Assembly: GCA_965203275.1 (NCBI GenBank)
Contig: OZ241865.1
Location: forward strand, 576,001-640,000
DNA: 64,000 bases
Source: Bdellovibrionales bacterium
Lineage (GTDB): Bacteria > Bdellovibrionota > Bdellovibrionia > Bdellovibrionales > JAUICD01
Direction of reading: 5' to 3'
Shown here: piece by piece, positions 555 through 53,010 of the stretch
Layout of the letters: each line of letters starts with the position of its first letter
Numbering within the stretch: the first letter of the stretch is position 1
The notes under the pieces: model-generated
Told to the model about the DNA's origin: nothing
The model's database searches: none
Seen by the model: the letters and a program-made list of their open reading frames with translations, nothing else
Program-made: the position numbers and the translations under genes

Positions 555-970
555 CCGGGATCTGGGATCCGGCAACCCGGCATCAGATGAAACTCTTTTT
601 CCTTAACATTTCACTAAAAGTGGTCTAGCCTCTGGCTACTTTCTGGCAATGACCGCAATGGCTTTCGCCATTGGCAAAATGGTCATTGCCTAGAAAGCTT
701 GACCACTTTTAGTAGAGAAGGATCCCTTTATTCCTTTACAGCATGTTAAGGAAAAATTCTTTTATTGCCTCAAGAGCAAGCGACTTACGATAAAGGAACT
801 TTTTCCTTAACATCGTGTTAAAAAATGAGGACATCCTCCTTCCTAAAATTGAACAAGCTTTTGAGACAGTTAGCCTTTGATCGACGGCGAGAGCCGTCGT
901 GCTAACTGTCCAAAAGTAGCCAGAGGCTAGTTCAATTTTAGGGAAACAGAGGTTGGTTTACTTTTAGTGA
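555..970. repeat. Intergenic mosaic: GGGATCY module plus two oppositely oriented structured family-A elements (~609-755 minus, ~801-947 plus)
   Basis: Nested inverted repeats actaaaagtggtc/gaccacttttagt and cctaaaattgaac/gttcaattttagg. The same architecture recurs at ~4163, 6383, 30180, 38411, 39800, 51881 and 52715. Confidence 0.9.
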
Positions 971-978
971 GCCAAAGC

Positions 979-1538
979 CAACGCACGTATTTCCAAAAAA
1001 GGTTCGTACGGGTAGACGAAAATCAACGAAGTTAGATAATAAAAGGCCCAAATAAAGAAGTGAGAATGATATATACAACAAAGAGCATATATGTAGGATG
1101 TTATACAATGAATTTCTGCCCGATCACCTCAAAATTGACCTTCCAGTTCTCTGAAAGAAGCTTGACCTGGTGGATTTACGAAATTAGAAATGGAATATTC
1201 AAGGAAGGGAAATTTTGAGGGAAACAACGCACGTATCTCTGAAAGAGGTTCGTACGGGTAGACGAAAATATACGAAGTTAGACAATAGAAGGTCCAAGAA
1301 GTGAGAATGATATATACAACAAAGAGCATATATGTAGGATGTTATACAATGAATTTCTGACCGATCACCTCAAAATTGACCTTCCATTTCTCTGAAAAAA
1401 GCTTGACCTGGTGGATCTATGAAATTAGAAATGGAATATTCAAGGAAGGGAAATTTTGAGGGAAACAATTCACGTATCTCTGAAAGAGGTTCGTACGGGT
1501 AGACGAAAATATACGAAATTAGACAATAGAAGGTCCAA
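979..1538 (+). repeat. Tandem ~241-246 bp structured repeat, family B (~2.3 units)
   Basis: caac/caattcacgtat..ggttcgtacgggtagacgaa recurs at 979, 1225 and 1466; homologous to the array at 38613-39561. Confidence 0.9.
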
Positions 1539-1543
1539 TAGAA

Positions 1544-3109
1544 CTACTGGCTTGATATAACTTTTTGAAGTTTCTCTAAGGATTTTCTTAATTGTCCGGA
1601 GGCTTTTGTCATTCTCCATGCACTTAATTTAAGTTCTACTTGAGATTCACTTAATTGCAGATGGCTATTTGTTGCTTCATCACCTGATTGAATGATCTGC
1701 AAAAGAGGAATACGCCCTAATAAATAGCGTCTTTCATCTAATGTGGCTCTCTCTGTTTGCTTGCTCACATTTTCTTCTCGCAGTTTGACAATATTTTCAA
1801 GCTCCTTAAACTGTGAACAATTATTAAGCCATTGGAGTTGCAACTGAGATCGCATATAAGATGACATAGCGACCCCTTTAGCATGCTCTGCTAAAGCCTC
1901 TGACATATTTGCTTTTTCTTGAAATTTTGAAAGTGGCATCATCACCTCAAAACCTGCAAAAAGGCTTGTATTGTCAAATAGAAAAGATTTTTTCATCACT
2001 TGGAAAGCTGATGAATTTTCTTGATTGAGTGCAGATAATCCTAAAACAAGTTTCAAGTCAGGCAAGAAAGCATTACGAGCAACATTTTTTTTTAAAAGAC
2101 TTGCATTTTTTAAATATTCCCAATACTGCACTTCTGTAGATGTTTTAGGAATATCATTGATATCACAATCTTCTATTACATGGTCAGAATCCAATGATAT
2201 ATTAATTTTCAAAGGGTCATAAACAAGCCAGTGGCTAGGGAGCTTAAGATTTAAGACAACCTCTCGCCATATATTCATCAAAGATTCCCTTGCTAAACGC
2301 AACCTTACTTGAGCTTCTAACAGAGAGCCTTCTACTTGCAAAAGATCTGATCTCTCTGCTGTACCTCGCCTCCGTTTTATTCTTGTAATATTGACCAATC
2401 TTCTTTTACTAGCTAAATGATTTTGAGCTGCTTGCACTTCAGATCGGACTTTCCATACATTATAGTAGTTTTGAATCACATCCAATGCCCAGTTTTCAAT
2501 ATTTAAAGCTAAAGATTCTTGAGCAGCTTTTGTCGATAATACACCAGCTTGTTGTCTTTTCTTTGTTTGATAGCCAAAAGAATCTCTTAATAATGATTGT
2601 GAAACAGAAAATGTAAGATCTGATTGAAAGGCATTGGCTAAAGAAGTGTTATTTAAACCCAAAGTAACTTTTGTTCCTGTTTGAAAGAAAGTATCAGCTT
2701 GTACATTATAATAAGGACCATCACCAAAATTTCGCATAGTAGAAAATGAAGAGATATGCCTGTTAGATCTAGAAGAACCATCAGAGCGAAGGCCTACTTG
2801 TGAGGTCAAGCGAGTCTCTGTAGGAATACGAGATAAGTATTCTGCCTTTGGGATAGCAAAGGCTTCAGATGTAACAATCCTAAAAGTATCAGAGCTTTTA
2901 ATTAATTCTGTGAGGACAAAATCTAAAGTCAAAGTTTGTATAACTTTTTTATTGTTAGCCTGAGAGGTATTTTGAGAATGATCTTTTGGAGAGACAGCAT
3001 AAGAAAGATTGAAAAAATACAACAAAAAAAGAGGATAAACTAAAAATTGATTTTTTATTAATATCTCTTTCCGCAGTATTTTTTTCAATTTTAAAATTTT
3101 CATATTCAA
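1544..3109 (-). CDS. TolC-family outer membrane efflux protein
   Basis: 521 aa; signal peptide; two OEP-like helical repeats (RRRGTAERSDLLQVE; RYLLGRIPLLQIIQS; NAFLPDLKL). Confidence 0.8.
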   Translation of the reverse strand: MNMKILKLKKILRKEILIKNQFLVYPLFLLYFFNLSYAVSPKDHSQNTSQANNKKVIQTLTLDFVLTELIKSSDTFRIVTSEAFAIPKAEYLSRIPTETRLTSQVGLRSDGSSRSNRHISSFSTMRNFGDGPYYNVQADTFFQTGTKVTLGLNNTSLANAFQSDLTFSVSQSLLRDSFGYQTKKRQQAGVLSTKAAQESLALNIENWALDVIQNYYNVWKVRSEVQAAQNHLASKRRLVNITRIKRRRGTAERSDLLQVEGSLLEAQVRLRLARESLMNIWREVVLNLKLPSHWLVYDPLKINISLDSDHVIEDCDINDIPKTSTEVQYWEYLKNASLLKKNVARNAFLPDLKLVLGLSALNQENSSAFQVMKKSFLFDNTSLFAGFEVMMPLSKFQEKANMSEALAEHAKGVAMSSYMRSQLQLQWLNNCSQFKELENIVKLREENVSKQTERATLDERRYLLGRIPLLQIIQSGDEATNSHLQLSESQVELKLSAWRMTKASGQLRKSLEKLQKVISSQ

Positions 3110-3173
3110 AACCTCTCTATGTATAAAAAAGCTTTGAAGTCAAAGCCCATAATAAATGTAAAGAATATCAGAT

Positions 3174-4076: not shown

Positions 4077-4161
4077 ACTTATTTTTTATACAAATACAAA
4101 TAAAAAATCAAGATATTCTTATAGCTTTCTTTTTGAAAAGCTGTCAAGGCTTAGGAGTCTA

Positions 4162-4302
4162 TTTCACTAAAAGTGGTCAGACAGCAAGCTTCTCTGAAGC
4201 TTGCCATGTAACAACACTAGGCAATGACCATTTTGCCAATGGCGAAAGCCATTGCGGTCATTGCCAGAAAGTAGCCAGAGGCTAGACCACTTTTAGTGAA
4301 AT
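4162..4302. repeat. Family-A element, palindromic (MITE-like) form
   Basis: Termini tttcactaaaagtggtc / gaccacttttagtgaaa; inner ggcaatgacc/ggtcattgcc and caatggc-gaaa-gccattg. Confidence 0.85.
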
Positions 4303-6202: not shown

Positions 6203-6382
6203 ACATAGTAATGAGTTTATTAGGGTGTTATTGTTTGTCGCTACTATTAAAATAGAATGCATTTCTACTGACAACAAATCTCGATTTGCTTTTATCCGTT
6301 TTCCACCAACTTATTACGATAAAAGCTTGGTTATGTCTCTTCCCTTTTTTTGACTTCTTGTACTTTTTAATTTCTAACTCTA

Positions 6383-6908
6383 TTTCACTCAAAGTGAACT
6401 GGCCTCTGGCCACTTTCTGGCGATGACCACGATGGCTTTCGCCATTGACAAAATGGTCATTGCCTAGAAAGCCTGTTCACTTTGAGTAGGAAGGATCCTT
6501 TCCTCTTTTAACACCATGTTAAGGAAAAAGTTCTTTCTTACACCTTTTGGCCCGACGGCTTACGCCGTCGATAAAATGGTCATTGCCTCAAAAATCTATG
6601 CATTTTGAGTAGGGCGAATCTCCTTGCTTCTTGACACCATGTTAAGGAAAAATTCTTTTATTGTCTCAAGAGCAAGCAGTTTGCGAATAAAACTCTGTTT
6701 CCTTAACATGTAGTTAAGAGACGAGAGGATCCTTCCTACTAAAAGTAAACGGATTTTTGAGGTATTGCTCTTTTTGGACAGCGTAAGCTGTCAGAGCAAT
6801 GCCCAAAAACAGCCAGAGGCTGGTTTATTTTTAGTGAAAAAGATAAGAAGGCGAATAGCCTTCGGCTGGCAACCCAAAAGTGACCAGAGGCTAGTTTACT
6901 TTTAGTGT
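6383..6908. repeat. Cluster of family-A elements between convergent fadD and dppA
   Basis: Copies at ~6383-6530 (minus), ~6545-6652 (minus, partial), ~6698-6840 (plus), ~6845-6908 (partial; overlaps the dppA stop codon). Confidence 0.9.
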
Positions 6909-8596
6909 AATAACACGTAAGTAAAAACATTTGTATTGCCAATAAGTGATATCTTATAACCAACTACATTTTTCCTCTTTGCAACATAAATAGTGGAATA
7001 TGCTATGGGTATCCATGGGACTTCCTCATTAAAAATCACCTGAGCTTTTTGATAGAGTTGAATCCTATCCTGACGATTCATTATACGTCTTGCCTGAGAT
7101 ACTAGCCGATCAAAAACAGGATGACACCAAAAAGCACGTGTTGCCCCTGTCTTAATAGCATGACAACTCAAGAGAGAATATAAAAAATCATCAGGGTCTC
7201 CATTATCAGCACTCCAGCCTAGTTGCATTAAAGAATGTTCTCCTTGATTGGTTTTTGCAAGATAAGTAGGCCACTTATAAGAGACCAGCTTGACCTGAAT
7301 GCCTATTTGAGCTAAGTCAAACTGCATCATCTCTGCTAATTTTTTACCCGATGGTAAATAAGGTCTTGATATAGGTAAAACCCAAAGATCCGTTTTAAAC
7401 CCCTTCGCAAATCCTGCTTTCTTTATTAAAGATTTTGCTTTCTGCACATTGTGATCATAACTTTTCACCTGATGATGATAGCTCCAAATTGTAGGAGGGA
7501 TAGGATTATAAGCTTTTTGAGCATGACCTAAATAAACAGATTGAATGTAAGCCTCTTTATCCAAAGCATAATGCACTGCTTGACGTACAAGCTTGTTATC
7601 AAAAGGAGGCTTTTGAGTATTAATAGCTAAAAAAGCAATATTCATACCTTCTGCTTTGACAAGATCTAAGTTTTTATCTTTTTTAATGGCATTTAAATCC
7701 TCTGGAGCAGGCACAGCTATTAACTGACATTCATTGGCTTTTAGCTTTTGAAAACGAATAGAAGCATCAGGTGTGATAGAAAAAATAAGATTTTGTATAT
7801 TACCTCTTTGGCTATCAAAGTAATCAGGGAAAGCCTCATATTGAATCAAATGATCTTTTTTATACTGTTTAAAAACAAAAGGACCTGTACCAATAGGCTG
7901 ACGATCAAACATCTTTAGAGTTTTAGCTTGCAACATTTGATCTGCATACTCCTTAGAAAAGATACTTGTAAAAGGCATTGTCAAATTGCTTAAAAATGGA
8001 GCGTTGGGTCTTGAGAGAATAAATTTTACTTTGTAATTATCTATCTTAATAATATCCTTAATAACAGACTTCATATCCATATTGTGAAAAAATTTATAAA
8101 GACCACCACTGACCTTATGATAAGGATGATGTAAATCCATTTGTCTTTTAAAGCTAAAGATCACATCATCTACATTCATATTTCTAGTAGGGACAAAGTA
8201 AGATGTCGCATGAAACTTCACATCTTCTCTCAGTTCAAATGTATATTCCAAGCCTTTATTGTCAATAGTCCATCTTTTAGCTAACTTAGGGATAATATTT
8301 GTTTTGCCATATTCAAAGTCAACAAGGGTGTCAAAGATAGGACGAGTGGCCTCAAAACTAGCATCGTCTATTTCAAACTGTGGATTAAAACCTGATGGAC
8401 TAGCTTCAGAGCAGTAAACTAAAGTTTTTGCTTTATCTTGCAAAGCTTTACCTTGCAAAGAAGATGTGCTGTATGCCATTTGTATAGAGATCACAAGAAA
8501 AAGCAATCCCACAAGCCATTTCAAAAAAAGATTTTGTGTTTTATAATACATAATCACTTCTTGTTTCCTACATACCCACATAGTATAAAAAATCAT
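6902..8596 (-). CDS. dppA: Dipeptide ABC transporter substrate-binding protein (SBP family 5); true start probably 8551
   Basis: KTLVYCSEASPSGFNPQ, PIGTGPF, GWSADNGDPDDF motifs; signal peptide after Met16. Confidence 0.88.
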   Translation of the reverse strand: MIFYTMWVCRKQEVIMYYKTQNLFLKWLVGLLFLVISIQMAYSTSSLQGKALQDKAKTLVYCSEASPSGFNPQFEIDDASFEATRPIFDTLVDFEYGKTNIIPKLAKRWTIDNKGLEYTFELREDVKFHATSYFVPTRNMNVDDVIFSFKRQMDLHHPYHKVSGGLYKFFHNMDMKSVIKDIIKIDNYKVKFILSRPNAPFLSNLTMPFTSIFSKEYADQMLQAKTLKMFDRQPIGTGPFVFKQYKKDHLIQYEAFPDYFDSQRGNIQNLIFSITPDASIRFQKLKANECQLIAVPAPEDLNAIKKDKNLDLVKAEGMNIAFLAINTQKPPFDNKLVRQAVHYALDKEAYIQSVYLGHAQKAYNPIPPTIWSYHHQVKSYDHNVQKAKSLIKKAGFAKGFKTDLWVLPISRPYLPSGKKLAEMMQFDLAQIGIQVKLVSYKWPTYLAKTNQGEHSLMQLGWSADNGDPDDFLYSLLSCHAIKTGATRAFWCHPVFDRLVSQARRIMNRQDRIQLYQKAQVIFNEEVPWIPIAYSTIYVAKRKNVVGYKISLIGNTNVFTYVLLH

Positions 8597-30108: not shown

Positions 30109-30179
30109 GGCATCAGTTCCCGGTATGCCAGATTGCCGGATCCCAGATCCCGGATCATGGGAGTGAATATAAAGTCTTG

Positions 30180-31702
30180 TTTCCTTAACATGGTGTTAAA
30201 AAATGAGGACATCCTCCTTCCTAAAATTGAACAAGCTTTTGAGGCAGTTAGCCTTTGATCGACGGCGGTAGCCGTCGGGCTAACTGCCCAAAAGTAGCCA
30301 GAGGCTAGTTCAATTTTAGGGAAACAGAGGTCAGACCACTTTTAGTGAAACAAATCCTTCAGTCTCCCACTGCCCCATCCTCTCCCTAATTATTTTTTGT
30401 TTGATGGTTACGCAGAATCTAAAAAAAATAAAAAAACAAAAAAAAAGAACTTTTTCCCTAACATGGTGTTAAGAGAAAAAAGGATCCTTCCCTACTCAAA
30501 ATAAATGGATTTTCTAGGCAGTTAGCCTTTGATCAACGGCGATAAGCCGTTGGGCTAACTGCCAGAAAACATGCCAGAGGCATGATGCATTTTGAGTGAA
30601 ACAAACCCTTAACATGGTGTTAAAAAATGAGGAGATCCTCCCTACTAAAAGTGGTCAGGCTTTCTAGGTTGCCAGCATTTGAGAAGGCGATAGCCTTCGG
30701 CTGGCAACCAGAAAGTGACCAGAGGTCAGACCACTTTTAGTGAAACAAATCCTTCAGTCTCCCACTGCCCCATCCTCTCCCTAATTATTTTTTGTTTGAT
30801 GGTTACGCAGAATCTAAAAAAAATAAAAAAACAAAAAAAAAGAACTTTTTCCCTAACATGGTGTTAAGAGAAAAAAGGATCCTTCCCTACTCAAAATAAA
30901 TGGATTTTCTAGGCAGTTAGCCTTTGATCAACGGCGATAAGCCGTTGGGCTAACTGCCAGAAAACATGCCAGAGGCATGATGCATTTTGAGTGAAACAAA
31001 CCCTTAACATGGTGTTAAAAAATGAGGAGATCCTCCCTACTAAAAGTGGTCAGGCTTTCTAGGTTGCCAGCATTTGAGAAGGCGATAGCCTTCGGCTGGC
31101 AACCAGAAAGTGACCAGAGGTCAGACCACTTTTAGTGAAACAAATCCTTCAGTCTCCCACTGCCCCATCCTCTCCCTAATTATTTTTTGTTTGATGGTTA
31201 CGCAGAATCTAAAAAAAATAAAAAAACAAAAAAAAAGAACTTTTTCCCTAACATGGTGTTAAGAGAAAAAAGGATCCTTCCCTACTCAAAATAAATGGAT
31301 TTTCTAGGCAGTTAGCCTTTGATCAACGGCGATAAGCCGTTGGGCTAACTGCCAGAAAACATGCCAGAGGCATGATGCATTTTGAGTGAAACAAACCCTT
31401 AACATGTTGTTAAAAAACGAGGAGATCCTTCCCTACTAAAAGTGGTCAGGCTTTCTAGGTTGCCAGCATTTGAGAAGGCGATAGCCTTCGGCTGGCAACC
31501 AGAAAGTGACCAGAGGTCAGACCACTTTTAGTGAAACAGAGGCCAGTTCACTTTGAGTGAACGAGAGCCTTCGGCTGGCAACCAGAAAGTGACCAGAGGT
31601 CAGACCACTTTTAGTGAAACAGCTTAGCCTTTGATCGACGGCGGTAGCCGTCGGGCTAACTGCCAGAAAACATGCCAGAGGCATGATGCATTTTGAGTGA
31701 AA
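30180..31702 (+). repeat. Family-A cluster including a 395-bp unit triplicated in tandem (30325-31538)
   Basis: caaatccttcagtctccc at 30351, 30746 and 31141; each unit holds two different family-A variants. Confidence 0.93.
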
Positions 31703-31836
31703 AAAAATGAGGACTTCGGAAGCCTGCACCCGCATTCCACTCATATAACAAAAATGAAAAAGCAGAATCGAAGGGCGGGGGGTGGGGTTAGGGATTATCC
31801 CTTTGCTACTGGGCAAAAAATTATCTTTGCAAAAGG

Positions 31837-38410: not shown

Positions 38411-38612
38411 TGTTTCACTCAAAATAAATCATGCCTCTGGCATGTTTTCTGGCAGTTAGCCCGACGGCTTATCGCCGTCGGGCTGATTGCCCAAAAACAG
38501 CCAGAGGCTGGTTTATTTTTAGTGAAACAAACGCGGTCATTGCCCAAAAACATGCCAGAGGCATGATGCATTTTGAGTGAAAAAGACGGTTGGTTTACTT
38601 TTAGTGAAAAAG
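38411..38612. repeat. Palindromic family-A doublet (38411-38529) plus partial copies
   Basis: tgtttcactcaaaataaa ... tttatttttagtgaaaca, beginning immediately after the pepA stop. Confidence 0.88.
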
Positions 38613-39585: not shown

Positions 39586-40660
39586 GATAAGTATAAGGAG
39601 GGAGTATTATTGTATGAATAATGAAGGAGAGTACCCTCCGGGATCGGGCAACCCGGCAGTCAGGCATCCGAAAGAACTCTTTTTCCTTAACATCCTGTTT
39701 ATCCGGGATCTGGGATCTGGCAAACCGGCATCACTTCCCGGTATGCCAGATTGCCGGATCCCAGATCCCGGATCATGGGAGTGAATATAAAGTCTTGTTT
39801 CCTTAACATGGTGTTAGAAAACGAAGGTTTCCTCTCTACTCAAAGTGAACAGGCTTTTGAGGTAGCCAGCCTTTGATCGACGACGAAAGTCGTCGGGCTG
39901 GCTACCCAAAAGTGACCAGAGGTCAGTTCACTTTGAGTGAAATAAATCGATAAGTATAAGGAGGGAGTATTATTATATGAATAATGAAGGAGAGTACCCT
40001 CCGGGATCTGGGATCCGGCAACCCGGCATCAAAAAGAACTCTTTCCTTAACATTGTGTTAAAAAACGAAGGGTTTCTTCTTACTCAAAGTGAACAGGCTT
40101 TCTAGACGATGACCATTTTATCGATGGCGAAAGCCATCGTGGTCATCGCCAGAAAGTGGCCAGAGGCCAGTTCACTTTGAGTGAAACAGCTCAGCCTTTG
40201 ATCGACGGCGAGAGCCGTCGTGGTCATCGCCCAGGGTGTAAGAAGGAACTTTTTCCTTAACATGTAGTTAAGAGATGAGGAGATCCTTCTTACTAAAAGT
40301 AAACGGACTTTTGAGGTTGCCAGCGGTGATGAAGGAATTTTTTCCTTAACATGGTGTTAAAAAACGAAGATATCCTCTTTACTAAAAATAAACGGATTTT
40401 TGAGGCATTGCTCTTTTTAGACAGCATAAGCTGTCAGAGCAATGCCCAAAAACAGCCAGAGGCTGGTTTATTTTTAGTGAAAAAGATAAGAAGGCGAATA
40501 GCCTTCGGCTGGCAACCCAAAAGTGACCAGAGGTCAGTTTACTTTTAGTGAAAAAGATAAGAAGTATAAGGAGGGAGTATTATTATATGAATAATGGAGG
40601 ATAGAATCCTCCGGGGATCTGGGATCCGGGATCTGGTAAGCAAGTGTAAGAAGGAACTTT
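39586..40660 (+). repeat. Mosaic of family-A elements, GGGATCY modules and a thrice-repeated aagtataaggagggagtattatt module
   Basis: Family-A cores at 39838, 40082 and 40381; module copies at ~39589, ~39952 and ~40562. Confidence 0.9.
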
Positions 40661-44736: not shown

Positions 44737-44758
44737 TTTTACCCCCCCCCTAAATAAG

Positions 44759-45502: not shown

Positions 45503-45792
45503 CTTTTTAGGATAGCAGAAACCTTTCCATAAAAAAACACAATATAGACTTGAGTATTGAAAGATTTATCTAACTATAAAAACTATGAAAACAAAACCTG
45601 AGTTTTTTGTAAAGGTTCATTTGAGCTAAAAATAAAGTTCCTGAGTTTGATAGCCTGCAAAAATAAAGTTGAGCAGTAGGTTATGAGTCGAAAGGGATTT
45701 TGTGCCACTAGGTTTTTGTTTTTGTGCCAGAATTTTAGACAATCTATGTTGTTTCACTCAAAGTGGGCTGTTTCACTAAAAATAAATAGGGC

Positions 45793-45821
45793 TTGACTTT
45801 TTAGATATATGTTGTTATAAA
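45793..45821 (+). promoter_or_regulatory. Sigma70-like promoter TTGACT-N17-TATAAA
   Basis: Consensus match with an extended -10 TG, 46 bp upstream of the ankyrin ATG. Confidence 0.5.
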
Positions 45822-45867
45822 ATCAAAAATTAATTAATTCAAAGAAGAAAAAGAAGGAGAAGTACAA

Positions 45868-46374
45868 ATGAAAAAATATATTTTTATCTTATTTATTGCT
45901 TTGCTTGTTTCTAGTGATTCTCTATGGGCTTATTCTGAAAGCCTTATGCATGCCAAACAAAGTGAGAGGGAATTACTCAATAATGACTTATTAAATCGCG
46001 TTGTTTTCGGTAGCCATAGATCGGTAAGGGAATTGCTAGAAAAAGGTGTGGACGTCAATTATCAAAGAGAAAATGACGGCTGGACGGCTTTAATTAGAGC
46101 TAGTTATTTTAGTTATTCAAACAACTTCCGTATAGATATTATAAGGTTATTGATAGAATATGGTGCGAACGTCAATCTTCAAGACAAAGATGGCTATACG
46201 GCTTTAGTGTTTGCAAGCTATAACGGCCATACTGAGGCTGTAAAGCTATTGCTAGCGAACGGAGCCAAAGTCAATCTTCAAGACGACCGTGACTATACGG
46301 CTTTATATTATGCTAATCGAGAAGGTTATATTGAAATTCAAAAACTATTAAGAGAGGCCGGAGCTACAGAATAA
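45868..46374 (+). CDS. Secreted ankyrin-repeat protein
   Basis: Signal peptide; GWTALIRAS, GYTALVFASYNGH, LL..GA.VN repeats. Confidence 0.92.
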   Translation: MKKYIFILFIALLVSSDSLWAYSESLMHAKQSERELLNNDLLNRVVFGSHRSVRELLEKGVDVNYQRENDGWTALIRASYFSYSNNFRIDIIRLLIEYGANVNLQDKDGYTALVFASYNGHTEAVKLLLANGAKVNLQDDRDYTALYYANREGYIEIQKLLREAGATE

Positions 46375-46945
46375 TACCAATTCTATATTTGTTTCAAAGT
46401 GAGAATCTTTTTTTATTTTCTTGAGTTTGACAGTTGATTTGCAAATTTGGGCATTTTCTTTTTTGAGAATGCTTTATTTATAGGTATTAAAGGTTTGTAG
46501 ATTTTAATTTGTAAATTTTGGTGGAACTTCTAGTGAAGCATATTTTTGTAAATTTTTATCAATAAAACCTTGATATAGAAAGCTATGTATTATTGAGTAA
46601 AGATAATGATGAAAATATGAAAATCCTAAAAATAAGGGGAAAGATGAAGTGTCAGATGAATCAATTAATGATTTCCCCTAAATTAAAAAGCTTACAGTAA
46701 AAAGCTTACATTGTAGTTGTAGTGGCACAAAATCTCTCTCGGCTTATAACCTACTGAAATCTCACAACTTTATTTTTGCTGGCTATCAAACTCAGGATGA
46801 GGCAACCGCTTCTTTGAGAGAGCTTTTGCTAGATAGCTAGATGGCCAAAAGGCCAGATGGTCTGAAAAATATTTATTTTTGTATTCTTTTACAGAAACTA
46901 TGAGATTAGTTTTTTCTGGATGCTGGATGCTTTTTATCTCAGGGA

Positions 46946-49702
46946 TCATTCAGAGACCATCTCGTCAATAATTTTGTGTATTTGACCGCCTGTGGAATCT
47001 TCTAAAATACAAAAACACCAGTTTTGTTCTGAGTCTTGTGAAACGACTTTACACCACTGGTGCATAAAATCCCATTTTTGAATATCTCTTTTCTTTTTAT
47101 TCCCTTTAACTTCTAAAATTAAATAATTCTCATCAAAAAGCTTTACAATAAAATCAGGGATGTATTTTCTTCTCTTTCCTTCTTCATCCATGTAATTAAT
47201 TTCAAATCCTAAGTGATCATTTTTAACAAATGCAAGTACATTGCTATTTCTGTCAAGCTCTCTAGCACAAGCATATTCCCAATGACTGTCAATCACACAT
47301 TGATTTAAGTGTGTTTTCTTGAAAAGACCTACCTTCTTTTGAGTCCACCACTCTTCCATATCAGCCGTAGAACAGAAAAGCATTTCTTCATTATAAACAG
47401 CAGAGACTTGTTCAAAAGAATCTGCTTGTATCAATGTTAAGATTTTATTGACAATTTCATTCATTTTAATCATGACAATAAGCTCCTTTTTTTCTTTTTC
47501 ACAATCAGGTTTGACTTGAAACATTGGTGAATTAACAAATTTTTTGACAAGATAAAGAATCATTTGAAGGGCATCCAGTTTAGATACTTCATTTTTCCAA
47601 TGAAAATCAGCTTGATTGTAAACTTGATGTGTGACCTTCCAGGTCAGTGTCTTCAGACGATCATTGCGATCACATTGTTCTTGTTCTTCAAGAATTTTTT
47701 GAAGATTTAAAACAGTGACAGATCCTGCTTTTTTGCCGTCAAGAACAGAAGCCATCTCTTGAACTCTTGGAATTTGAGAAACATCTATTGTAAAAGGTTC
47801 TATAGCTTCAAAATTAATAGTGAGCTTTGATCTCAGGTAGACTTTAATTTTTTCTATATGAGGCCATAAGATTTCATACTTTGATTTTTCTTTTTCAGGA
47901 TAAATGCAATATCTTGTGATATCTTCTTTTTTTCCAGTGTCGTTCCCCTCTTGAGGGAGGTAAGCAAAAGGTACACCTAAGACATGCACATACTCTGGTC
48001 TAAATAGACCTTCATCATTAATTTCATAAGAGGTGCGTCTTAAGCCTCTGCCTATAACTTGCTCGCAAAGCAATTGACTACTAAAAGCTCTTAAACCCAT
48101 GATATGGGTGACTTGTGTACAGTTCCAACCTTCAGAGAGCATAGCTACAGAAATAACGTGATGGATATGTTGTTCTTGTGTTCCTATTTTACCTATATTA
48201 TTGAGTTGTTTTCTTATTTCTTCATCCTCATCATCTTTTAATCCAGAGTAGATTTTGAACGTTTTGTTCGAACCTTTAAATTTTTCAGGAATGCCAGGGA
48301 TGGCATCAGTTTTAAAGCTATATTCAAGTCGATCAGCAGTTTCTTTTCTGTTCACTACTGAAATCATTACAGGAGGGCGGAAATCCTTTAAATTTTGTCT
48401 ATAGGCATCCTTCCATGCTTCGTATTTTTTATTCCAACTACTGCAAAGATATGTATATCCTGTTTTGACAATATCTAGTAGATGTTCTTTTTCAGAAGCC
48501 TTTCTATTGAGATCATTTTTTACTTCGTCATTTTCATAAATATGATAGAGTCTTGGCTTGAGAGTTTTATTGATGGAGGCATCATCACCTACAGCAAATT
48601 GAGGGGTTTTGACAAGTCCGGACTCAATGGCATCAGCCAGTCCAAAATCGCTGACAATCCAACCAAATAAGCCTTGTGGATTAGCTGTTGAACCCATGGG
48701 GATATAAGGTGTAGCAGAAAAATCAAAGATCTTATGAATTCCTATCGTGCGATGAATGCGATCTAAGCTTTCTATCCATTTTGTAGCTTGATCTACATCT
48801 ATACCTTCTTTTTTTAAAGTTCTTTTTTTTCTTTTCATTTCTGGTGAAGATCGCCATGCATGATGAGCTTCATCATTGATCACAAGAATATTTTTAGATG
48901 TAGCTATATCTTCAAGCACTTCTCTGATGTAAGCTTTATCACTTTGAGGTCCTCTTTTATCGACAGTTTTTCTATTTTGAATTTGATCTTCTGTTTCCCA
49001 TTGCAATTGTTGCCAATTTTTAATTAAGATTTTACCTTGCCTAAATTTTTCTTGCCAATGGTTAGGTATGATCTTGTATTCTTTATAATAGTTGTGAGGA
49101 TGACTATATTTTAAAACGTTGAGTCTTTCTTTGACAGTTAAATTAGGGGTGACAATAAATATATTTTTTGAAAATCTTGTATCTTGTGGATGATTGATTT
49201 TGTTGAGTATTTGCCAAGCAATAGTCATAGCCATCACGACTGTTTTACCTGTACCGGTGGCCATTTTACAGCATAATCGATGGAGTTTCTCATCTTGAGG
49301 TATCACAAGACCTTGCTTAAAATCTTCTCTAGCTTCTAGTAAGAAAATCAAAGTTTTAATGGCTTCTAATTGAGCAAAAAAGAAATTATATTTCCGACCA
49401 GAATCTTCTGGGTTTGTATTCCAATATTCTAATAGTTGGTGAGTGGTGGTGGTGATCCCTTGATAATTTTCTTGCTTCCATTCTGTCATTCTTTTGCGTA
49501 TGTTATTGACAAGAGGAATTTCTTTTACGATGCCATATTCGTCGTAAGATTTGTTTTGGGGGTCATTAATAATATAGTTAGCAGGCCGACGGCTCTTTTT
49601 CAAGACATGTTCTTGATGAGTTTTATCCCAATACCAATGCTTTATCGGCTCTTGAAATGGAGAGTTAATAATCAGTTTTTTGATAGGTTTGATTGTTGAC
49701 AT
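46946..49702 (-). CDS. res: Type III restriction enzyme Res subunit
   Basis: KMATGTGKT, INDEAHH, EQVIGRGLRR, C-terminal YIPDF..LEVKG nuclease motif. Confidence 0.9.
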   Translation of the reverse strand: MSTIKPIKKLIINSPFQEPIKHWYWDKTHQEHVLKKSRRPANYIINDPQNKSYDEYGIVKEIPLVNNIRKRMTEWKQENYQGITTTTHQLLEYWNTNPEDSGRKYNFFFAQLEAIKTLIFLLEAREDFKQGLVIPQDEKLHRLCCKMATGTGKTVVMAMTIAWQILNKINHPQDTRFSKNIFIVTPNLTVKERLNVLKYSHPHNYYKEYKIIPNHWQEKFRQGKILIKNWQQLQWETEDQIQNRKTVDKRGPQSDKAYIREVLEDIATSKNILVINDEAHHAWRSSPEMKRKKRTLKKEGIDVDQATKWIESLDRIHRTIGIHKIFDFSATPYIPMGSTANPQGLFGWIVSDFGLADAIESGLVKTPQFAVGDDASINKTLKPRLYHIYENDEVKNDLNRKASEKEHLLDIVKTGYTYLCSSWNKKYEAWKDAYRQNLKDFRPPVMISVVNRKETADRLEYSFKTDAIPGIPEKFKGSNKTFKIYSGLKDDEDEEIRKQLNNIGKIGTQEQHIHHVISVAMLSEGWNCTQVTHIMGLRAFSSQLLCEQVIGRGLRRTSYEINDEGLFRPEYVHVLGVPFAYLPQEGNDTGKKEDITRYCIYPEKEKSKYEILWPHIEKIKVYLRSKLTINFEAIEPFTIDVSQIPRVQEMASVLDGKKAGSVTVLNLQKILEEQEQCDRNDRLKTLTWKVTHQVYNQADFHWKNEVSKLDALQMILYLVKKFVNSPMFQVKPDCEKEKKELIVMIKMNEIVNKILTLIQADSFEQVSAVYNEEMLFCSTADMEEWWTQKKVGLFKKTHLNQCVIDSHWEYACARELDRNSNVLAFVKNDHLGFEINYMDEEGKRRKYIPDFIVKLFDENYLILEVKGNKKKRDIQKWDFMHQWCKVVSQDSEQNWCFCILEDSTGGQIHKIIDEMVSE

Positions 49703-49902
49703 GTTATGACTTATTTTGTTTAGGTTGTTTTCTATTATTTCTATCCACTAGGCAAAATATTTACAAGAGGCTCTCTTTATTTGTAAATGCTTTATATATT
49801 TTCTTCTTTGATGGATGCTCTTTTTTGATCAACTTAGAGTATATCTCTTGCCATGACAAGCTTTTTTAGTTAAAATGGCTAAAAAATAACTTAAGAATAG
49901 TT

Positions 49903-50430
49903 ATGGAACAAATAAGAAGTACACTGGAACGTCGCTTATCACTTCATACCTTTGAAAACTTAATTAAAGAAAATCCATTTGTTCCAAAAGAACGGAAACA
50001 AATTTTTCTTAAGGGGTTAAATGCAGGATTAAAAGGAGATCATTTAACCTGTATGCATTTGCTTATTCCACAAATTGAAAATTCTATTCGTATGATTTTA
50101 GAGCAACATGGAGTACTTACCACAAAATTAAAAGAACAAAGAAAAAAGCATAAGGCAGAAAAAGAACAAGACGAGGCACAGAGTCAACCTAACTTAACCC
50201 AGGAATATTTTGATCTCAATAAAATTCTCCGAGGGTCTGAAACTGAAAAAATATTTGGAGAAGATATGATATTTCATTTGCGATCTCTTCTGGTGAGTAA
50301 ATCAGGTAAAAATTACCGCAATAGGTTAGCACATGGTTTACTAAAAGATAATGATTTTTCCGCAGGATGGCCTAATTATTTGTGGGTTGTCACAATAAAA
50401 CTTTGCTTGCATTTTCTTCACTTAAAGTAA
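49903..50430 (+). CDS. DUF4209-like HEPN-domain protein (C-terminal domain only)
   Basis: HLLIPQIENSIR and NYRNRLAHGL (RxxxxH) motifs. Confidence 0.7.
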   Translation: MEQIRSTLERRLSLHTFENLIKENPFVPKERKQIFLKGLNAGLKGDHLTCMHLLIPQIENSIRMILEQHGVLTTKLKEQRKKHKAEKEQDEAQSQPNLTQEYFDLNKILRGSETEKIFGEDMIFHLRSLLVSKSGKNYRNRLAHGLLKDNDFSAGWPNYLWVVTIKLCLHFLHLK

Positions 50431-50472
50431 ACTAGCCTCTGTTTCACTCAAAATAAATCATGCCGTCTTTTG

Positions 50473-51872
50473 GAGCTTGTCCCTGATATCGGTGAAAATA
50501 GACGGCTCATAAATTAGTTTTTAATTGTTTTTTCTTTTTGTCAATAATAATTTTTTTTAAACTTTGTTCTAATTGTTCTAAATCTTTAAATCCTTTAATG
50601 CTTTTGAAATGTTTTTCTGCTTCCAATAGACTCACAGCAGACCATCTTAAAACTTGATCTGAAGAAGAACTCCAATTCTTTACCCTCCGAACTTTTTCCC
50701 TCACAACTGAAAAAACAGACTCAATAGGATTTGTCGATGATAATGACCTCCTTAAAAGTAATGAAACTCCAAGCTTGATCGTTGTCAGTGTCTCCATCTC
50801 TGCCTCTTTTAAAGATGTGAATGCTGAATGATTGACCCGCTTTAACCAGCTTAATAAAGACTCATGCTCTAACTTCGATGACAACTCATCTGGCATACCA
50901 TGTAACTTCTTCCAACGACTCTTAAACTCTATGTGACGACTTGGAGGTAAGCAACTCAGAATATTTCTCTCTTTATGCTGAATACAACGCTGAACTACTG
51001 AACGACCTGAAAATACTCTATCTATTCCCTTCCTTAATGCTTTGCTACCATCAATCACAAAAAGATAACCCTTCTCTTTATCAAGACCACGACCTATAAG
51101 TCCCTCCAGAAGATCACGGCAAACTTCCCAACTCTCTGTATTGCCTTCTTTAAGACCTAATATAACCTTCTTACCTTGATCTGTGATTCCTAAGGCCACT
51201 ATAACCAGCGTAGAACCAATACCCACTCCATCTATCATTATCGCTGGAAACCTGTACTTACTTAAATCACGATTGTTAATCGACTCAAGGGCTTGTTTAG
51301 ATGACTTATTAAAAACTCTACTCACACTACTCCTAGAAAGTTTAAGCCCTCCTGAAATATCATCTAAAAGATGATTGTAATTCCGTGATGAAACTCCACT
51401 CATGGCATGTTTTAAAACACGATCACTGAGTATGTCATAGTGTTGAAGGGCTGAATAGATCTTAAGCCTCACTTCACGACCTGACTGCTTAACACGAGGC
51501 TTCCTAACCTGCAACTTTTGACCACCTGCAAGTATGCTACCTTTATCACTACCAGCTCTATGATATGGTGTATCTCTATGACGACCATAACGCTCACCGC
51601 AAAGCTCTAATAGCTCTGCTTCAAAAAAACCATAGACCGAACAAAGAATAGATGACTTGATCTCATCCTCTACAATCTGACGAATTTCTGACAAAGTATT
51701 GGCTGAAACTTGAAATGAATGACTATTTTTGGTACACTTCATAATGGCTCCTTTCTTTTTATTTTTAAAAGTTAATTGTTAATAAAATTTGGTTGGCTGA
51801 AATATGCCAACCAGGAGCCTTCTATCTTAACATCTTCTCTAAGAAAAATTCACCGAATTATAGGACATGCTC
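50473..51872 (-). mobile_element. IS256-family insertion sequence, 1400 bp, with 8-bp target duplication GTCTTTTG
   Basis: Ends gagcttgtccctgatatcggtgaa / ttcaccgaattataggacatgctc; direct repeats at 50465-50472 and 51873-51880. Confidence 0.92.
50507..51742 (-). CDS. IS256-family (Mutator-like DDE) transposase
   Basis: GVSSR, IMIDG, VIDGSKAL, QRCIQHKERN, STNPIES. Confidence 0.93.
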   Translation of the reverse strand: MKCTKNSHSFQVSANTLSEIRQIVEDEIKSSILCSVYGFFEAELLELCGERYGRHRDTPYHRAGSDKGSILAGGQKLQVRKPRVKQSGREVRLKIYSALQHYDILSDRVLKHAMSGVSSRNYNHLLDDISGGLKLSRSSVSRVFNKSSKQALESINNRDLSKYRFPAIMIDGVGIGSTLVIVALGITDQGKKVILGLKEGNTESWEVCRDLLEGLIGRGLDKEKGYLFVIDGSKALRKGIDRVFSGRSVVQRCIQHKERNILSCLPPSRHIEFKSRWKKLHGMPDELSSKLEHESLLSWLKRVNHSAFTSLKEAEMETLTTIKLGVSLLLRRSLSSTNPIESVFSVVREKVRRVKNWSSSSDQVLRWSAVSLLEAEKHFKSIKGFKDLEQLEQSLKKIIIDKKKKQLKTNL

Positions 51873-51880
51873 GTCTTTTG

Positions 51881-52105
51881 CACTCAAAGTGAACTGGCCT
51901 CTGGCCACTTTTGGACGATGACCGCAAAGGCTTTCGTCTTTGACAAAATGGTCATCGTCTCAAAAGCCTGTTCACTTTGAGTAAGGAGGATCCCTTCATT
52001 TTTTTTACACCATGTTAAGGAAAAAGTTCTTTCTCATGCTAATTTGCCGGGGTGCCAGGTCCCGGGTTGCCAGATCCAGATCCCGGATAAATATCATGTT
52101 AGGGA
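51881..52105 (-). repeat. Family-A element plus GGGATCY-type module; its neighbour (50440-50464) lies on the other side of IS256
   Basis: actcaaagtgaac/gttcactttgagt stem, followed by ..catgttaaggaaaa. Confidence 0.88.
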
Positions 52106-52173
52106 AACAAGGTGTTCGTTTTTATGGATTTCTTTGAAAAGGTAAGGAATTTAGGTTTGAAAATTAGATTTTC

Positions 52174-52586
52174 AGTGATTTCAGCTACTTAATATTGTGA
52201 CTTTTGTATAAAAGTCACAGTATTAAGTGTTTGTAATTGTTAGACTTTTTTAGGTCGACTTTAGAAATTTCTAATTTTTCGTCTAACACAATTCTTATCG
52301 TTTATTATGACATAAAACTTTATATTTTTGTTAAAAAAAATCAAAAAAAGTTACATTTTGTATCAAAAAGAATCACTTTTTTAAATTTTTGTATCATCTT
52401 GAAACACTTTACCAATCTTAAAGATATAAGATCAGCAAAACAAACAATAATTTTTCATTTGTGTTTTATAACTTTTGCTTTGTTTGATTTTTCAAAACAG
52501 TTTTCTTGCAAAAATTTGTCTGTTTTTTGCCCTTTCAAATTGTGACTTTTATACAAAAGTTACAGTGCTAAGTCATTGAAATCACT
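52174..52586. repeat. 46-bp inverted repeats (52174-52219, 52541-52586), each containing a TGTRACTTT-N6-AAAGTCACA palindrome
   Basis: 39/46 identical by hand alignment; the inner 20 bp are perfect. Confidence 0.85.
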
Positions 52587-52660
52587 AGAGTCATTTTTTT
52601 GTACTCTCTAAAGGTATAGAGACAAAATACAAAATAAATGCACTAAGGTAGTTTCATTGG

Positions 52661-53010
52661 GTTTCACTCAAAGTGACCAGGACTCAGGCCACTTTGAGTG
52701 AAAAAAAGAAGGAACTTTTTCCTTAACATGGTGTTAAGAGACAAGGAGATCCTTTCTACTAAAAGTAAACGGACTTTTGAGGTAGCCAGCCTTTGATCGA
52801 CGGCGAAAGCCGTCGGGCTGGCTATCCAAAAGTAGCCAGAGGCTAGTTTACTTTTAGTGAAACAAACTCCTTAACATGGTGTTAAGAGAGAAGGAGATCC
52901 TTCCTACTCAAAATGAGCGGGTTTTTGAGGCATTGCTCTTTTTGGACAGCGATAGCTGTCTGAGCAATGCCCAAAAACACACCAGAGGTGTGGCTCATTT
53001 TGAGTGAAAA
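52661..53010 (+). repeat. Minimal palindrome plus two tandem family-A elements upstream of the pilin gene
   Basis: Cores at 52758-52863 and 52906-53010. Confidence 0.9.

Follow-up and report, generated by a model that had tools for sequence, protein, structure and literature searches.

A dispersed repeat with a conserved three-armed hairpin fold, apparently a new variety of bacterial mobile element, in a Bdellovibrio-like genome

What kind of sequence recurs between the genes of a Bdellovibrionales bacterium, varying in its letters while keeping its helices paired, and what might move it? The question is raised by a 64-kb stretch of DNA (the window, meaning the whole stretch analysed here), for which an initial annotation described 19 copies of an intergenic element, here called family A, as a candidate for structured mobile DNA or ncRNA.

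Copy number and distribution

Using nhmmer with a profile built from the genome copies, we recovered all 19 listed copies, 17 of them full (model 1-2 to 141-142) and two 5'-truncated. Together with eight further fragments they make 27 matches in the window, all of which sit between long ORFs, in agreement with the intergenic placement first reported (Table 1).

Table 1. Family A copies and enzyme-related features in the window (slashes within motifs mark joints)
Feature	Position	Strand	Basis and remarks
IS630-type HTH fragment	1-525		window
Full copy (model 1-142)	606..767, core 608-749	-	nhmmer; 5' head pairs with inverted head at 3' flank; DNA fold -39.2 kcal/mol, z -10.0
Full copy with leader	789..949, core 807-947	+	nhmmer
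27-nt 3'-terminal mini-unit, joint GAAAC/AGAGG	946..974	+	sequence
5'-truncated copy (model 26-142)	4155..4302	+	nhmmer
Full copy	6382..6522	-	nhmmer
3'-truncated copy (model 1-99)	6548..6645	-	nhmmer
Full copy	6703..6840	+	nhmmer
5'-truncated fragment (model 78-141), directly behind copy 6703..6840	6847..6910	+	nhmmer
Full copy with leader	30167..30327, core 30185-30325	+	nhmmer; GAAAC/AGAGG mini-unit next, 30324-30350; DNA fold -44.5 kcal/mol, z -10.0
Six full copies: 30459-30602, 30609-30746, 30854-30997, 31004-31141, 31249-31392, 31399-31537	30459..31538	+	nhmmer; in tandem array 395-bp x 3.1 spanning 30325-31538
Mini-unit 31536-31559; 5'-truncated fragments 31562-31620 (model 83-142), 31624-31703 (model 65-142)	31536..31703	+	nhmmer/sequence
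5'-truncated copy 38412-38525 (-, model 35-142) and fragment 38532-38582 (+, model 93-141)	38412..38582	mixed	nhmmer
Full copy	39785..39945, core 39803-39943	+	nhmmer
Full copy	40029..40189, core 40047-40187	+	nhmmer
Composite: 40191-40233 (model 65-107), 3'-truncated 40257-40324 (1-69), full 40346-40482, fragment 40490-40554 (78-142)	40191..40554	+	nhmmer; genome 616257-616554
TnsA-like nuclease domain	46946-49702		window
Two 3'-terminal fragments, joint GAAAC/AGAGG, just downstream of IS256 transposase ORF	50419..50470	-	
IS256-type transposase	50507-51742		window
Full copy	51876..52036, core 51878-52018	-	nhmmer
Two full copies head to tail: 52723-52863, 52871-53010	52705..53012	+	nhmmer; second begins at CCTTAACA, 5 nt past GAAAC of the first; DNA fold -41.0 kcal/mol, z -10.5

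The host genome (G000) is a 2.57-Mb Bdellovibrionales MAG of an uncultured Bdellovibrio-like bacterium, in one contig and with a marker completeness of 90%. It holds 1309 non-overlapping family A matches (nhmmer), which make up 5.75% of its length: 736 are full, 231 5'-truncated, 278 3'-truncated and 64 truncated at both ends. Only 33 of the 1309 lie inside ORFs, compared with 75% of the genome being ORF; copies are also found nested within other copies, as well as within genes. In co-directional intergenic regions the two orientations relative to the flanking genes number 197 and 177 (p = 0.33), so there is no orientation bias.

Among 151 genomes of the order, three carry family A: G000, G001 and, from another genus, G004. 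A blastn search of 72,556 plasmids with family A gave no match, and pattern matches in viral contigs (three) and metagenome contigs (ten) were all rejected by the covariance model. Rfam searches of the window returned tRNA only at the gathering score, with no family A match, and at E <= 1 only chance matches to miRNA hairpins (20-21 bits against cut-offs of 51-60). In our view family A is probably a lineage-restricted, non-autonomous mobile DNA repeat, a selfish one that belongs with REP/BIME/MITE sequences and whose fold is unusually elaborate.

Fold and strand specificity

The unit measures 150-166 nt including its leader and has a 143-nt core. It opens with a leader, rich in purines and some 18 nt long, followed by the head (TTTCC-TTAACA-nnn-TGTTAA), a GGATCC mini-palindrome, a three-way junction and the GAAAC end. 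The junction is made up of P1, which closes a long bulged arm (P2a/P2/P2b) ending in a GNNA loop, and of the short hairpin P3, whose loop is AGA. Every element named in the initial annotation was found in a 473-copy alignment, namely the head hairpin, the GGATCC-centred small hairpin, the 13-bp P1, P2 with one bulged A, the internal loop, P2b, P3 with CC-AGA-GG, and GAAA(C); in addition, a J1/J3 pairing extends P2 by 6 bp. The helix alleles listed there were correct but incomplete, with 26 P1 variants and 31 P2 variants present genome-wide. The helices are mosaic, one P1 allele being found alongside at least nine P2 alleles.

Covariation, shuffle controls and a strand-specific wobble bias all uphold the earlier proposal that the three-way junction is selected for structure over sequence. 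Of the 469 copies that could be compared, 376 have a perfectly complementary P1 and P1', and 454 a perfectly complementary P3. When given 22 copies from three species, with no helices supplied, RNAalifold found P1, the bulged P2, P2b and P3 blind, calling 42 pairs, 30 of which show double (compensatory) changes. Pairing stood at 97.7%, a level reached by none of 500 shuffles (81.0 +/- 0.8), and sliding the partner by 1-3 columns lowered it to 33-47%. The head and the small hairpin, although present in the alignment, were not called by RNAalifold, and the head is the least constrained element (83% of cells Watson-Crick). The CCAGAGG described as invariant is so only within G000; in relatives its place is taken by GCTAGAGGC and GTCAGAGAC, of which GTCAGAGAC is a compensated pair.

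Among near-identical copies the stems change at a fifth of the rate seen in the head and loops (0.0052 versus 0.024-0.028 per column per edge), and the AGA loop shows 0 changes. Such slow stem change between close copies could mean function in place, and not selection only at copying. The GNNA loop has its G in 463 and its A in 471 of the 473 copies; since 163 of the 473 have GNYA in the P2b loop, with a pyrimidine at loop position 3, GNRA is not enforced. An inverted head lies at the 3' flank of 64 of 725 full copies, and these 64 are bracketed by CCTTAACAT...ATGTTAAGG. The local TGTTAA arm is kept in 4 of these 64, compared with 353 of the 661 others (Fisher p = 1e-14), and the inverted head is an alternative pairing partner of the 5' head.

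One-sided stem changes among near-identical copies comprise 94 G·T versus 31 A·C events (p = 1.5e-8), and mismatch cells, after removing one allele-fixed terminal pair, 306 versus 161. This excess of G·T indicates that the fold of one strand is what counts, although in silico either strand folds about equally well, which speaks against a single-strand reading.

Traces of movement

Copies whose 143-nt cores are 100% identical number 137 and fall into 53 groups. The identical-core pairs include 38 with unrelated distal flanks on both sides, 81 with one flank in common and 23 segmental duplicates. When filled and empty sites were compared, the cleanest case was found between paralogous sites of the same genome: at 1827554-1827691 a 157-nt unit (GATAGAAGAAC...GTGAAACA) lies between gtggttgtt and tgctagcc, and in the empty counterpart at 1812350 these flanks are contiguous. 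Another such paralogous comparison defines a 166-nt unit at 1199155, and at both 2515098 and 1341358 a 150-nt unit (CCTTAACA...GAAACAAAC) is placed exactly ahead of another CCTTAACA head. No target-site duplication was found at 1827554, 2515098 or 1341358, and direct repeats of 9-10 nt occur at two composite sites only (GAATAAAAGG at 893121 and GGCATCAGG at 573800). The insertion targets differ (gtggttgtt/tgctagcc, ..ccaaac/aaatg and ttt/ccttaaca). Most filled/empty pairs are not clean, having 5 to 50 nt of target replaced or a short direct repeat, and with such messy junctions recombination fits as well as transposition. Since the filled and empty sites compared are all paralogous sites of one genome, we infer insertion, as opposed to deletion, from these comparisons.

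Copies are also joined precisely to one another. Of 1069 3'-terminal units, 155 are without the 5' arm of P3 and are fused straight to the end of another copy (...GAAAC/AGAGG...); the window has four such joints, against 0.03 expected, and there is one more in G004. Of the two natures first proposed, mobile DNA is supported by the dispersal of identical copies, by a clean filled/empty site and by the nesting and exact fusion of copies. For ncRNA there is no such backing, orientation being even and the loops free of GNRA constraint.

A second small element of 146 nt, family C, was found exactly at TGCC/CAAAAG in 15 family A copies. Since these copies represent nine different host sequences, the fold of family A is itself a target too.

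Candidate enzymes, rival explanations and a possible mechanism

Any enzyme that moves family A looks like none of the usual ones. No enzyme encoded in the window tracks the element, as the initial annotation stated, but that statement needs the qualifier that an IS256-type transposase, an IS630-type HTH fragment and a TnsA-like nuclease domain are present. In profile searches across the five family genomes, no transposase follows the element convincingly. Reverse transcriptase (PF00078) had no candidate in G000 or G004, which separates family A from retroelements (retron, group II intron, DGR); IS110 had no match in G000, and DDE_3 was absent. TnpB-family PF07282 gave one weak zinc-ribbon match in G000 (29 bits, in a 1365-residue frame). 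Y2_Tnp and Helitron-like N were silent in five family genomes and equally so in the control genomes, and are thus uninformative. IS256 was rejected as the mover, being absent from the carrier G004 and having copies within 300 bp up- and downstream of only 2 and 1 of 9 genes. A parent IS with the same ends was also sought, and no ORF is flanked by the two halves of a copy.

PDDEXK_2 (Rpn-type) fits the distribution of family A best, if weakly: it is the only one of 11 enzyme families compared whose presence matches that of family A (14 matches in G000, 5 in G001, 1 in G004, and 0 in G003 and G002), in a comparison of five related genomes with many families tested. It is present in 8 of the 151 genomes of the order, and in G000 a copy lies within 300 bp downstream of 20 of 23 PDDEXK_2 ORFs, compared with 18% of all ORFs. 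However, no copy lies within 2.5-3 kb of the intact genes in G001 and G004, a G001 gene that does adjoin a copy is a stop-interrupted fragment, and in G000 copies lie inside several Rpn-type ORFs and break up others. Another genome, G022, has 14 PDDEXK_2 genes, and no shared hairpin repeat was found in the four loci examined. This widespread "putative transposase" family is currently taken for a toxin/defence nuclease with no ends defined (10.1101/2023.05.02.539157). It is quite unlikely, we think, that the three-way junction is the substrate of such a structure-specific PD-(D/E)XK nuclease acting as transposase.

Could family A have spread with no dedicated enzyme, as a palindromic satellite that owes its dispersal and shuffling to slipped replication, to ectopic recombination and to switches of template at hairpins? 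Switching from one arm to the other (quasipalindrome correction) would keep stems complementary without selection, and the mostly messy junctions with replaced target bases and microhomologies, the freely recombining modules, the many copies in tandem arrays and larger duplicated composites, and the lack of a transposase convincingly tracking the element all agree with this explanation. Such correction predicts no bias of G·T over A·C, however, and slippage does not put identical 143-nt units in unrelated flanks; the clean 157-nt insertion in unique sequence, the 155 joints at one exact dinucleotide step and the invariant AGA and GAAAC are likewise unexplained, making a satellite of this kind unlikely. 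The strong covariation, the three-way junction with its G..A tetraloop and bulged A, the wobble favoured on one strand and the stems conserved between close copies would also suit a structured RNA family (small RNAs, cis-regulatory UTR elements, or the guides or scaffolds of an RNA-guided system), with the DNA copies as its genes or mobile carriers. We regard this as very unlikely, given the absence of orientation bias, of a promoter-like site inside the copies scanned, of an Rfam match beyond chance hairpins and of a TnpB/IscB-type or reverse transcriptase partner, the GNYA tetraloops, and a spectrum of truncated, nested and gene-disrupting copies that is that of selfish DNA.

Elements of the IS200/IS605 family move without target duplication, have end hairpins, strand specificity and fixed cut sites beside hairpins, and insert head to tail. 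Family A may resemble them, with no target duplication in its cleanest filled/empty pair, hairpins near both ends, strand specificity, fixed break points beside hairpins and head-to-tail insertion, though its targets differ and many sites show replaced bases. Like the PATEs derived from them, it needs no terminal inverted repeat; with the RAYT-moved REP/BIME/REPIN sequences of gamma-proteobacteria it shares high copy number, extragenic location, hairpins with kept complementarity, BIME-like mosaic motifs and the lack of an encoded protein. It might be a REPIN/PATE-type element orphaned of its Y1 HUH transposase (RAYT or IS200/IS605 TnpA), the enzyme having been lost, being too divergent to detect or lying in the missing part of the G000 genome. 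Yet Y1_Tnp (PF01797) has 0 matches in the carriers G000 (6 candidates scored) and G004, against 3 in G002, which is without family A (control genomes were positive in 6 of 14). The one gene in G001 was rejected as the mover: it belongs to an ordinary IS200 flanked by unrelated hairpins of its own, and no family A copy lies within 1.5 kb. Identical dispersed copies, moreover, argue for recent activity in G000. The REP is a 20-40-nt palindrome or simple inverted doublet, in contrast to the larger three-way junction with five helices seen here, and no head of the GTAG/CGTC type was seen in family A. Compared with PATEs, G000 has no TnpA and no convincing TnpB, the clean targets show no single fixed tetra- or pentanucleotide, and the leader travels with the unit. 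We consider a Y1 orphan decidedly improbable. Integron attC sites, too, are recognised by fold over sequence and have extrahelical bases and single-strand specificity; the head CTTAAC...GTTAAG resembles their RYYYAAC/GTTRRRY boxes, and the 64 bracketed copies would fit as well. However, the best scores of the integron-integrase model (TIGR02249) in G000 and G001 are 33-45 bits, where the cut-off is 265, the carrier G004 has no Phage_integrase (PF00589) match, and copies are dispersed on both strands with no cassettes or cassette arrays. The notion of attC-like sites of an integron-type tyrosine recombinase is thus close to refuted, and we give it hardly any credence.

MITEs (Correia, ERIC/IRU, RUP, Nezha, Rickettsia palindromic elements) and the modular pneumococcal BOX are 100-170 bp long, have hundreds of copies and strong predicted structure, insert occasionally into genes and abound in host-associated bacteria. 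Family A is like them, as compared by description, in size, copy number, predicted secondary structure, modularity and occasional gene insertion. It differs from classical MITEs in that a terminal inverted repeat is confined to the 64 copies with an inverted 3' head, target-site duplication is not consistent and no DDE transposase matches.

We favour, as the likelier account, a mobile DNA whose spread requires one of its strands to fold. A specific nick-and-join scheme can be put forward tentatively, as a possibility more doubtful than that general claim. The drawn strand would fold, and an enzyme acting in trans, encoded outside the element, would recognise the fold and cut and join at fixed points, after GAAAC and within the P3 loop at CC/AGAGG, so that the 150-166-nt unit would be copied to new places without target-site duplication. 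Other copies would be preferred as targets, whether at the boundary ahead of a CCTTAACA head, in the P3 loop or in the P2/P2b arm, and recombination between copies would then shuffle whole helices. Covariation would arise because only units with still-pairing arms are propagated. The single-stranded intermediate, the nick-and-join chemistry and the action in trans are what we infer from these patterns.

Family A is apparently a new variety of bacterial mobile repeat, which folds into a conserved three-armed hairpin and is present in some 1,300 copies. If the proposed link to PDDEXK_2 were true, it would be the first cognate mobile DNA for that family and would reveal an HUH-independent way to move folded single-stranded DNA.

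Family A in the genome and its fold

The Bdellovibrionales genome under study (G000) is a single contig of 2,567,810 bp with 35% G+C. When it was searched with nhmmer, using a profile made from 473 regex-selected genome copies, family A gave 1351 raw matches, or 1309 non-overlapping ones (679 on the + strand, 630 on the - strand). These comprise 736 full-length copies, 231 truncated at the 5' end, 278 at the 3' end and 64 at both, and together cover 147,663 bp (5.75%) of the contig. No replication-strand bias was seen in G000, where GC skew is weak. The window (G000:C1:576001-640000) has 27 matches. All 19 copy positions listed in the initial annotation were among them (17 full, 2 truncated), and its claim of intergenic placement was borne out, every window copy lying between long ORFs. 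In sample X4, the summed depth of family A was ~160x the single-copy depth. Contigs of four runs compared with window 39650-59649 were broken at the repeats and their joints were chimeras between copies, so that no empty site could be read by strain comparison; short-read assemblies from this lineage fragment at the repeats.

Family A has a narrow distribution. It was detected by blastn in 3 of 61 relatives and by a covariance model, scoring the best 21 candidates per genome, in 3 of 151 genomes of the order, namely G000, a genome of the same genus (G001) and one of another genus of the same taxonomic family (G004). Two further genomes of that taxonomic family, G002 and G003, had none by this model. 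Pattern matches in viral (3) and metagenome (10) contigs were all rejected by the covariance model, and a plasmid collection yielded no match.

The consensus begins with a head (H0, TTAACA-nnn-TGTTAA), a small palindrome centred on GGATCC (H1) and the 13-bp helix P1. Three unpaired bases, P2a (CTTTTG), a bulged A, the 11-bp P2 and an internal loop lead to P2b (7 bp, capped G-N-N-A), which is followed by the 3' strands of P2b, P2 and P2a, then by P3 (5-6 bp, AGA loop), P1' and GAAAC. Conservation extends upstream for ~18 nt, as a purine-rich leader ending in TTTTTCC, and downstream for only ~2 nt past GAAACA. Folded in silico as single-stranded DNA, copies reached -39 to -45 kcal/mol (z -8.7 to -12.6) on either strand.

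The initial annotation had proposed that structure rather than sequence is maintained, and the covariation analysis upheld this. Given 22 copies, of which the window supplied 14, G001 3 and G004 5, unguided RNAalifold recovered P1, P2a/P2, P2b and P3 as 42 pairs; for 30 of them, both bases differed in one sequence or more. Paired cells made up 97.7%, compared with 81.0 +/- 0.8 when the 3' partners were shuffled, and the 30 compensated pairs compared with 19.2 +/- 2.0; neither value was reached in 500 shuffles. Sliding the partner by 1-3 columns lowered pairing to 33-47%. The relatives contributed new helix alleles, including a compensated closing pair of the AGA loop (GTC-AGA-GAC). Within G000 the helices occur as discrete matched alleles that have been shuffled among one another: one P1 allele is combined with at least nine P2 alleles. 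P1 and P2 share a normalised mutual information of 0.63, as against 0.91-0.92 for opposite arms of the same helix, P2b or P3. The head can pair with either of two partners: its local TGTTAA arm persists in 4 of the 64 copies that have an inverted head in the 3' flank, compared with 353 of the 661 others (p = 1e-14).

Dispersal, insertion sites and break points

Family A bears clear signs of recent activity. In G000, 137 copies fall into 53 groups with 100%-identical cores; pairs with identical cores include 38 with unrelated flanks on both sides, 23 segmental duplicates and 81 sharing one flank. Junctions were read from gapped alignments and a whole-genome self-comparison of G000. At 1827554, a 157-nt unit (leader GATAGAAGAAC ... 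GTGAAACA) splits gtggttgtt/tgctagcc, which is uninterrupted at the paralogous site 1812350; the flanks are identical at 29/30 and 30/30 positions and there is no duplication. A filled/empty paralogous pair at 1199155 defines a unit of 166 nt with an AAAC ambiguity at its boundary, and at 2515098 and 1341358 a 150-nt unit, CCTTAACA...GAAACAAAC, is placed exactly before another CCTTAACA head. Many other pairs are not clean, with 5-50 nt of target replaced or 9-10-nt direct repeats.

P3 is intact in 838 of 1069 3'-terminal units. A further 155 are without the P3 5' arm and fused to the end of another copy as ...GAAAC/AGAGG...; the allele is frequently a different one, and in places several such units follow one another. 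The window contains 4 such joints where 0.03 are expected, and G004 contains one. The break points are thus fixed, immediately after GAAAC and between CC and AGAGG. Full copies are often nested in others, always in the same orientation, with the left junction mostly at model positions 65-109 and the right junction in the P3 loop or at positions 30-99. Genes are also interrupted, among them nuclease genes of the Rpn type (PD-(D/E)XK; PDDEXK_2 or Transposase_31) in both G000 and G001. Matched family A half-copies around an ORF, as in an autonomous version, were not found. At window 52660-52706, just upstream of a full copy, two 3' ends face each other across a 13-nt spacer as a perfect 15-nt inverted repeat (TTTCACTCAAAGTGG..CCACTTTGAGTGAAA).

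Candidate enzymes, neighbouring repeats and genes

The initial annotation had named several enzymes to be looked for beside a copy. Y1_Tnp and reverse transcriptase (RVT_1) had 0 matches in G000, as did IS110 and DDE_3; there was a lone, weak TnpB zinc-ribbon match (29 bits, inside a 1365-residue frame), and the 2 tyrosine recombinases matched did not include an integron integrase. Y2_Tnp and Helitron gave no match in G000, but as the control genomes were likewise silent these two negatives carry no information. Apparently, none of the enzyme classes known to mobilise folded DNA is present. The single Y1 gene of G001 was rejected as a candidate, since it belongs to an ordinary IS200 whose own hairpins are unrelated. 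We also discarded 5'-truncation as a sign of retrotransposition, since 5'- and 3'-truncated copies are about equal in number (231 vs 278) and G000 has no reverse transcriptase.

Among the families compared across the five genomes G000-G004, only PDDEXK_2 follows family A, with 14, 5 and 1 matches in the carriers G000, G001 and G004, and 0 and 0 in the non-carriers; in the order it is rare (8 of 151 genomes). IS256 (Transposase_mut) has 8 matches in G000, 11 in G001 and none in G003 or G004, resolvase occurs in all five, and Transposase_31 is abundant in G003, which is without family A. Rpn-type genes are greatly expanded in G000, where 29 ORFs or fragments belong to Transposase_31 and 23 to PDDEXK_2; family A copies split or interrupt some of these. 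A copy lies within 300 bp downstream of 20 of the 23 PDDEXK_2 and 18 of the 29 Transposase_31 ORFs, the comparison value for all G000 ORFs being 18%. Several observations weigh against a causal connection. The geometry of gene and copy is not fixed; in G001 and G004, the PDDEXK_2 genes that are intact lack a neighbouring copy, and those adjacent to family A in G001 are broken fragments. Four loci examined in G022, which has 14 PDDEXK_2 genes, had no shared hairpin repeat. Rpn proteins are presented in one report as toxin or defence nucleases without defined ends (10.1101/2023.05.02.539157). Since a dozen families were tested in five related genomes, the co-distribution of PDDEXK_2 with family A is only a lead.

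Features of the window and of G000 near or alongside family A.
Feature	Coordinates	Strand	Remarks
Third repeat family	window 30350-30458, 30745-30853, 31140-31248; genome e.g. 454781-454806
Heptamer arrays	window 30028-30114, 540-600		ATCCGGG, 12.4 copies, then GGCAACCCGGCATCAG
234-bp tandem repeat and related dispersed family	window 38613-39561, 979-1545		4.1 copies, 99% matches
Tandem paralogous ORFs	window 9874-13044 (five), 18220-19573 (two)		154-187 aa
RCC1-repeat / ankyrin proteins	window 13412-16891, 45868-46374; genome-wide		eukaryote-like repeat content
349-aa ORF	window 40667-41716	+	no Pfam match; over 18-nt periodic DNA repeat 40928-41163
918-aa ORF	window 46946-49702	-	ResIII helicase domain, C-terminal TnsA-like endonuclease domain
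IS256-family transposase gene	window 50507-51742	-	Transposase_mut match
Rpn-type PD-(D/E)XK genes, examples	G000:C1:1135829-1137040, 945996-947078

Several other repeats accompany family A. Family C, a second small element of 146 nt (CATTACC...GATCCAGCT), has 23 copies in G000 and none in the window; eight form a spacer-less tandem array (G000:C1:467212-468331), a further locus lies at 2552135-2553027, and 15 copies sit in family A copies at exactly TGCC/CAAAAG, in nine different host sequences. The third repeat family, ~190 nt (..CTCCCTAACCCCACCC..GAGGATGGGGCAGTGTGAGCC..GAGCTTGCTTTTAAAGAGCAAGCTC..), is palindromic and has at least 20 copies; family A has landed in it repeatedly. The heptamer-array module has a CCTTAACAT..TGTT head in common with family A, to which it is often fused. 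Units of the 234-bp tandem repeat and of a related dispersed 80-nt family (CAACGCACGTAT..GGTTCGTACGGGTAGACG..) bear a solitary TTTGAGGGAAAC, resembling the family A 3' end.

Of the genes, the tandem 154-187-aa ORFs gave weak apolipoprotein-like coiled-coil matches in 4 of 7 scanned, and related multi-copy ORF clusters contain 31 and 11 members across G000. This genome, which has no reverse transcriptase, also carries eleven copies of a gene for a four-helix bundle (23S_rRNA_IVP / TIGR02436; e.g. G000:C1:2111804-2112109). Each is followed within 300 bp downstream by a family A copy, which in 10 cases has the same orientation. In contigs from two other samples, window position 46416 is followed directly by 50473, with ~4 kb missing, and hence the segment around the ResIII/TnsA-like ORF may be variable. 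In the 18-nt periodic repeat, the + strand units listed are rich in CCA/CCC/CCG triplets. Ankyrin repeats are present in 62 ORFs of G000, and the window encodes an RCC1-repeat protein. Eukaryote-like repeat content is commonly taken as a sign of a host-associated lifestyle, and this small genome is probably host-associated.

Constrained strand, rival readings and significance

Along the minimum-spanning-tree edges that join near-identical copies (106 edges of up to 3 differences), stems changed at 0.0052 per column per edge and GAAACA at 0.0047, whereas the head, H1 region and tetraloop changed at 0.024-0.028; the AGA loop did not change at all. One-sided stem changes gave G·T rather than A·C by 94 to 31 on edges of up to 6 differences (p = 1.5e-8) and by 21 to 6 on edges of up to 3. 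Mismatch cells, counted without the last P2 pair, were 306 G·T vs 161 A·C (p = 2e-11); an apparent parity (310 vs 335 cells) had arisen from that pair alone, where an allele-fixed A·C accounts for 174 cells. The excess of G·T indicates that the fold of the drawn strand, that on which it is written here, is the constrained one. Taken alone, a wobble excess on one strand does not tell RNA from single-stranded DNA.

That family A is a structured RNA nevertheless seems improbable. In co-directional intergenic regions, full copies are oriented with the genes in 197 cases and against them in 177 (p = 0.33). An orientation bias found when all ORFs of at least 150 aa were used (180 upstream copies co-oriented, 68 opposed) was lost on a recount with a non-overlapping ORF set and sorting by intergenic type. 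No promoter-like sites were found inside the copies scanned. The tetraloop has G in 463 and A in 471 of 473 copies, and a pyrimidine at its third base in 163, so that the GNRA requirement is not satisfied; it is compatible with the d(cGNNAg) class of stable DNA loops. The balanced orientation, the lack of internal promoter-like sites, the non-GNRA tetraloop and the failure of any Rfam family to match, the last in keeping with the novelty proposed initially, favour DNA over RNA. Our own reading, which we hold to be probable but well short of certain, is that family A is a non-autonomous mobile DNA element dependent on its single-strand fold. A trans-acting activity would recognise this fold and cut at fixed points, and family A would land preferentially in or beside its own kind; recombination among copies, coupled with selection for a competent fold, would then give the mosaic of covarying helices.

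An enzyme-free palindromic satellite, spread by slippage and recombination, could account for the many messy filled/empty pairs, but not for the duplication-free insertion at 1827554 or the fixed break points, and we rate this explanation as rather unlikely. REP/BIME/REPIN and IS200/IS605-derived elements work in the way that family A does, but are defined by a Y1 enzyme in the genome, and G000 is without one; that family A is an orphan of this kind, dependent on an HUH enzyme, is distinctly doubtful. Classical MITEs differ in the TIR/TSD test, which family A fails. That the copies are attC-like sites we consider highly improbable, with no integron integrase among the tyrosine recombinases of G000. 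No description of family A was found in the literature searched.

To our knowledge, small structured repeats are the least understood bacterial mobile DNA, the moving enzyme of most families being not known. With five helices and dozens of compensated alleles, the recognition features of family A can be read straight from its sequences, and the family is suited to separating selection on the fold from mechanical homogenisation of palindromes. Its informative fold, copy number, recent activity and fixed break points, together with the apparent absence of the known enzyme classes, make it a good system in which to look for a new transposition or recombination activity. In this lineage, the repeats disrupt genes and could serve as strain markers.
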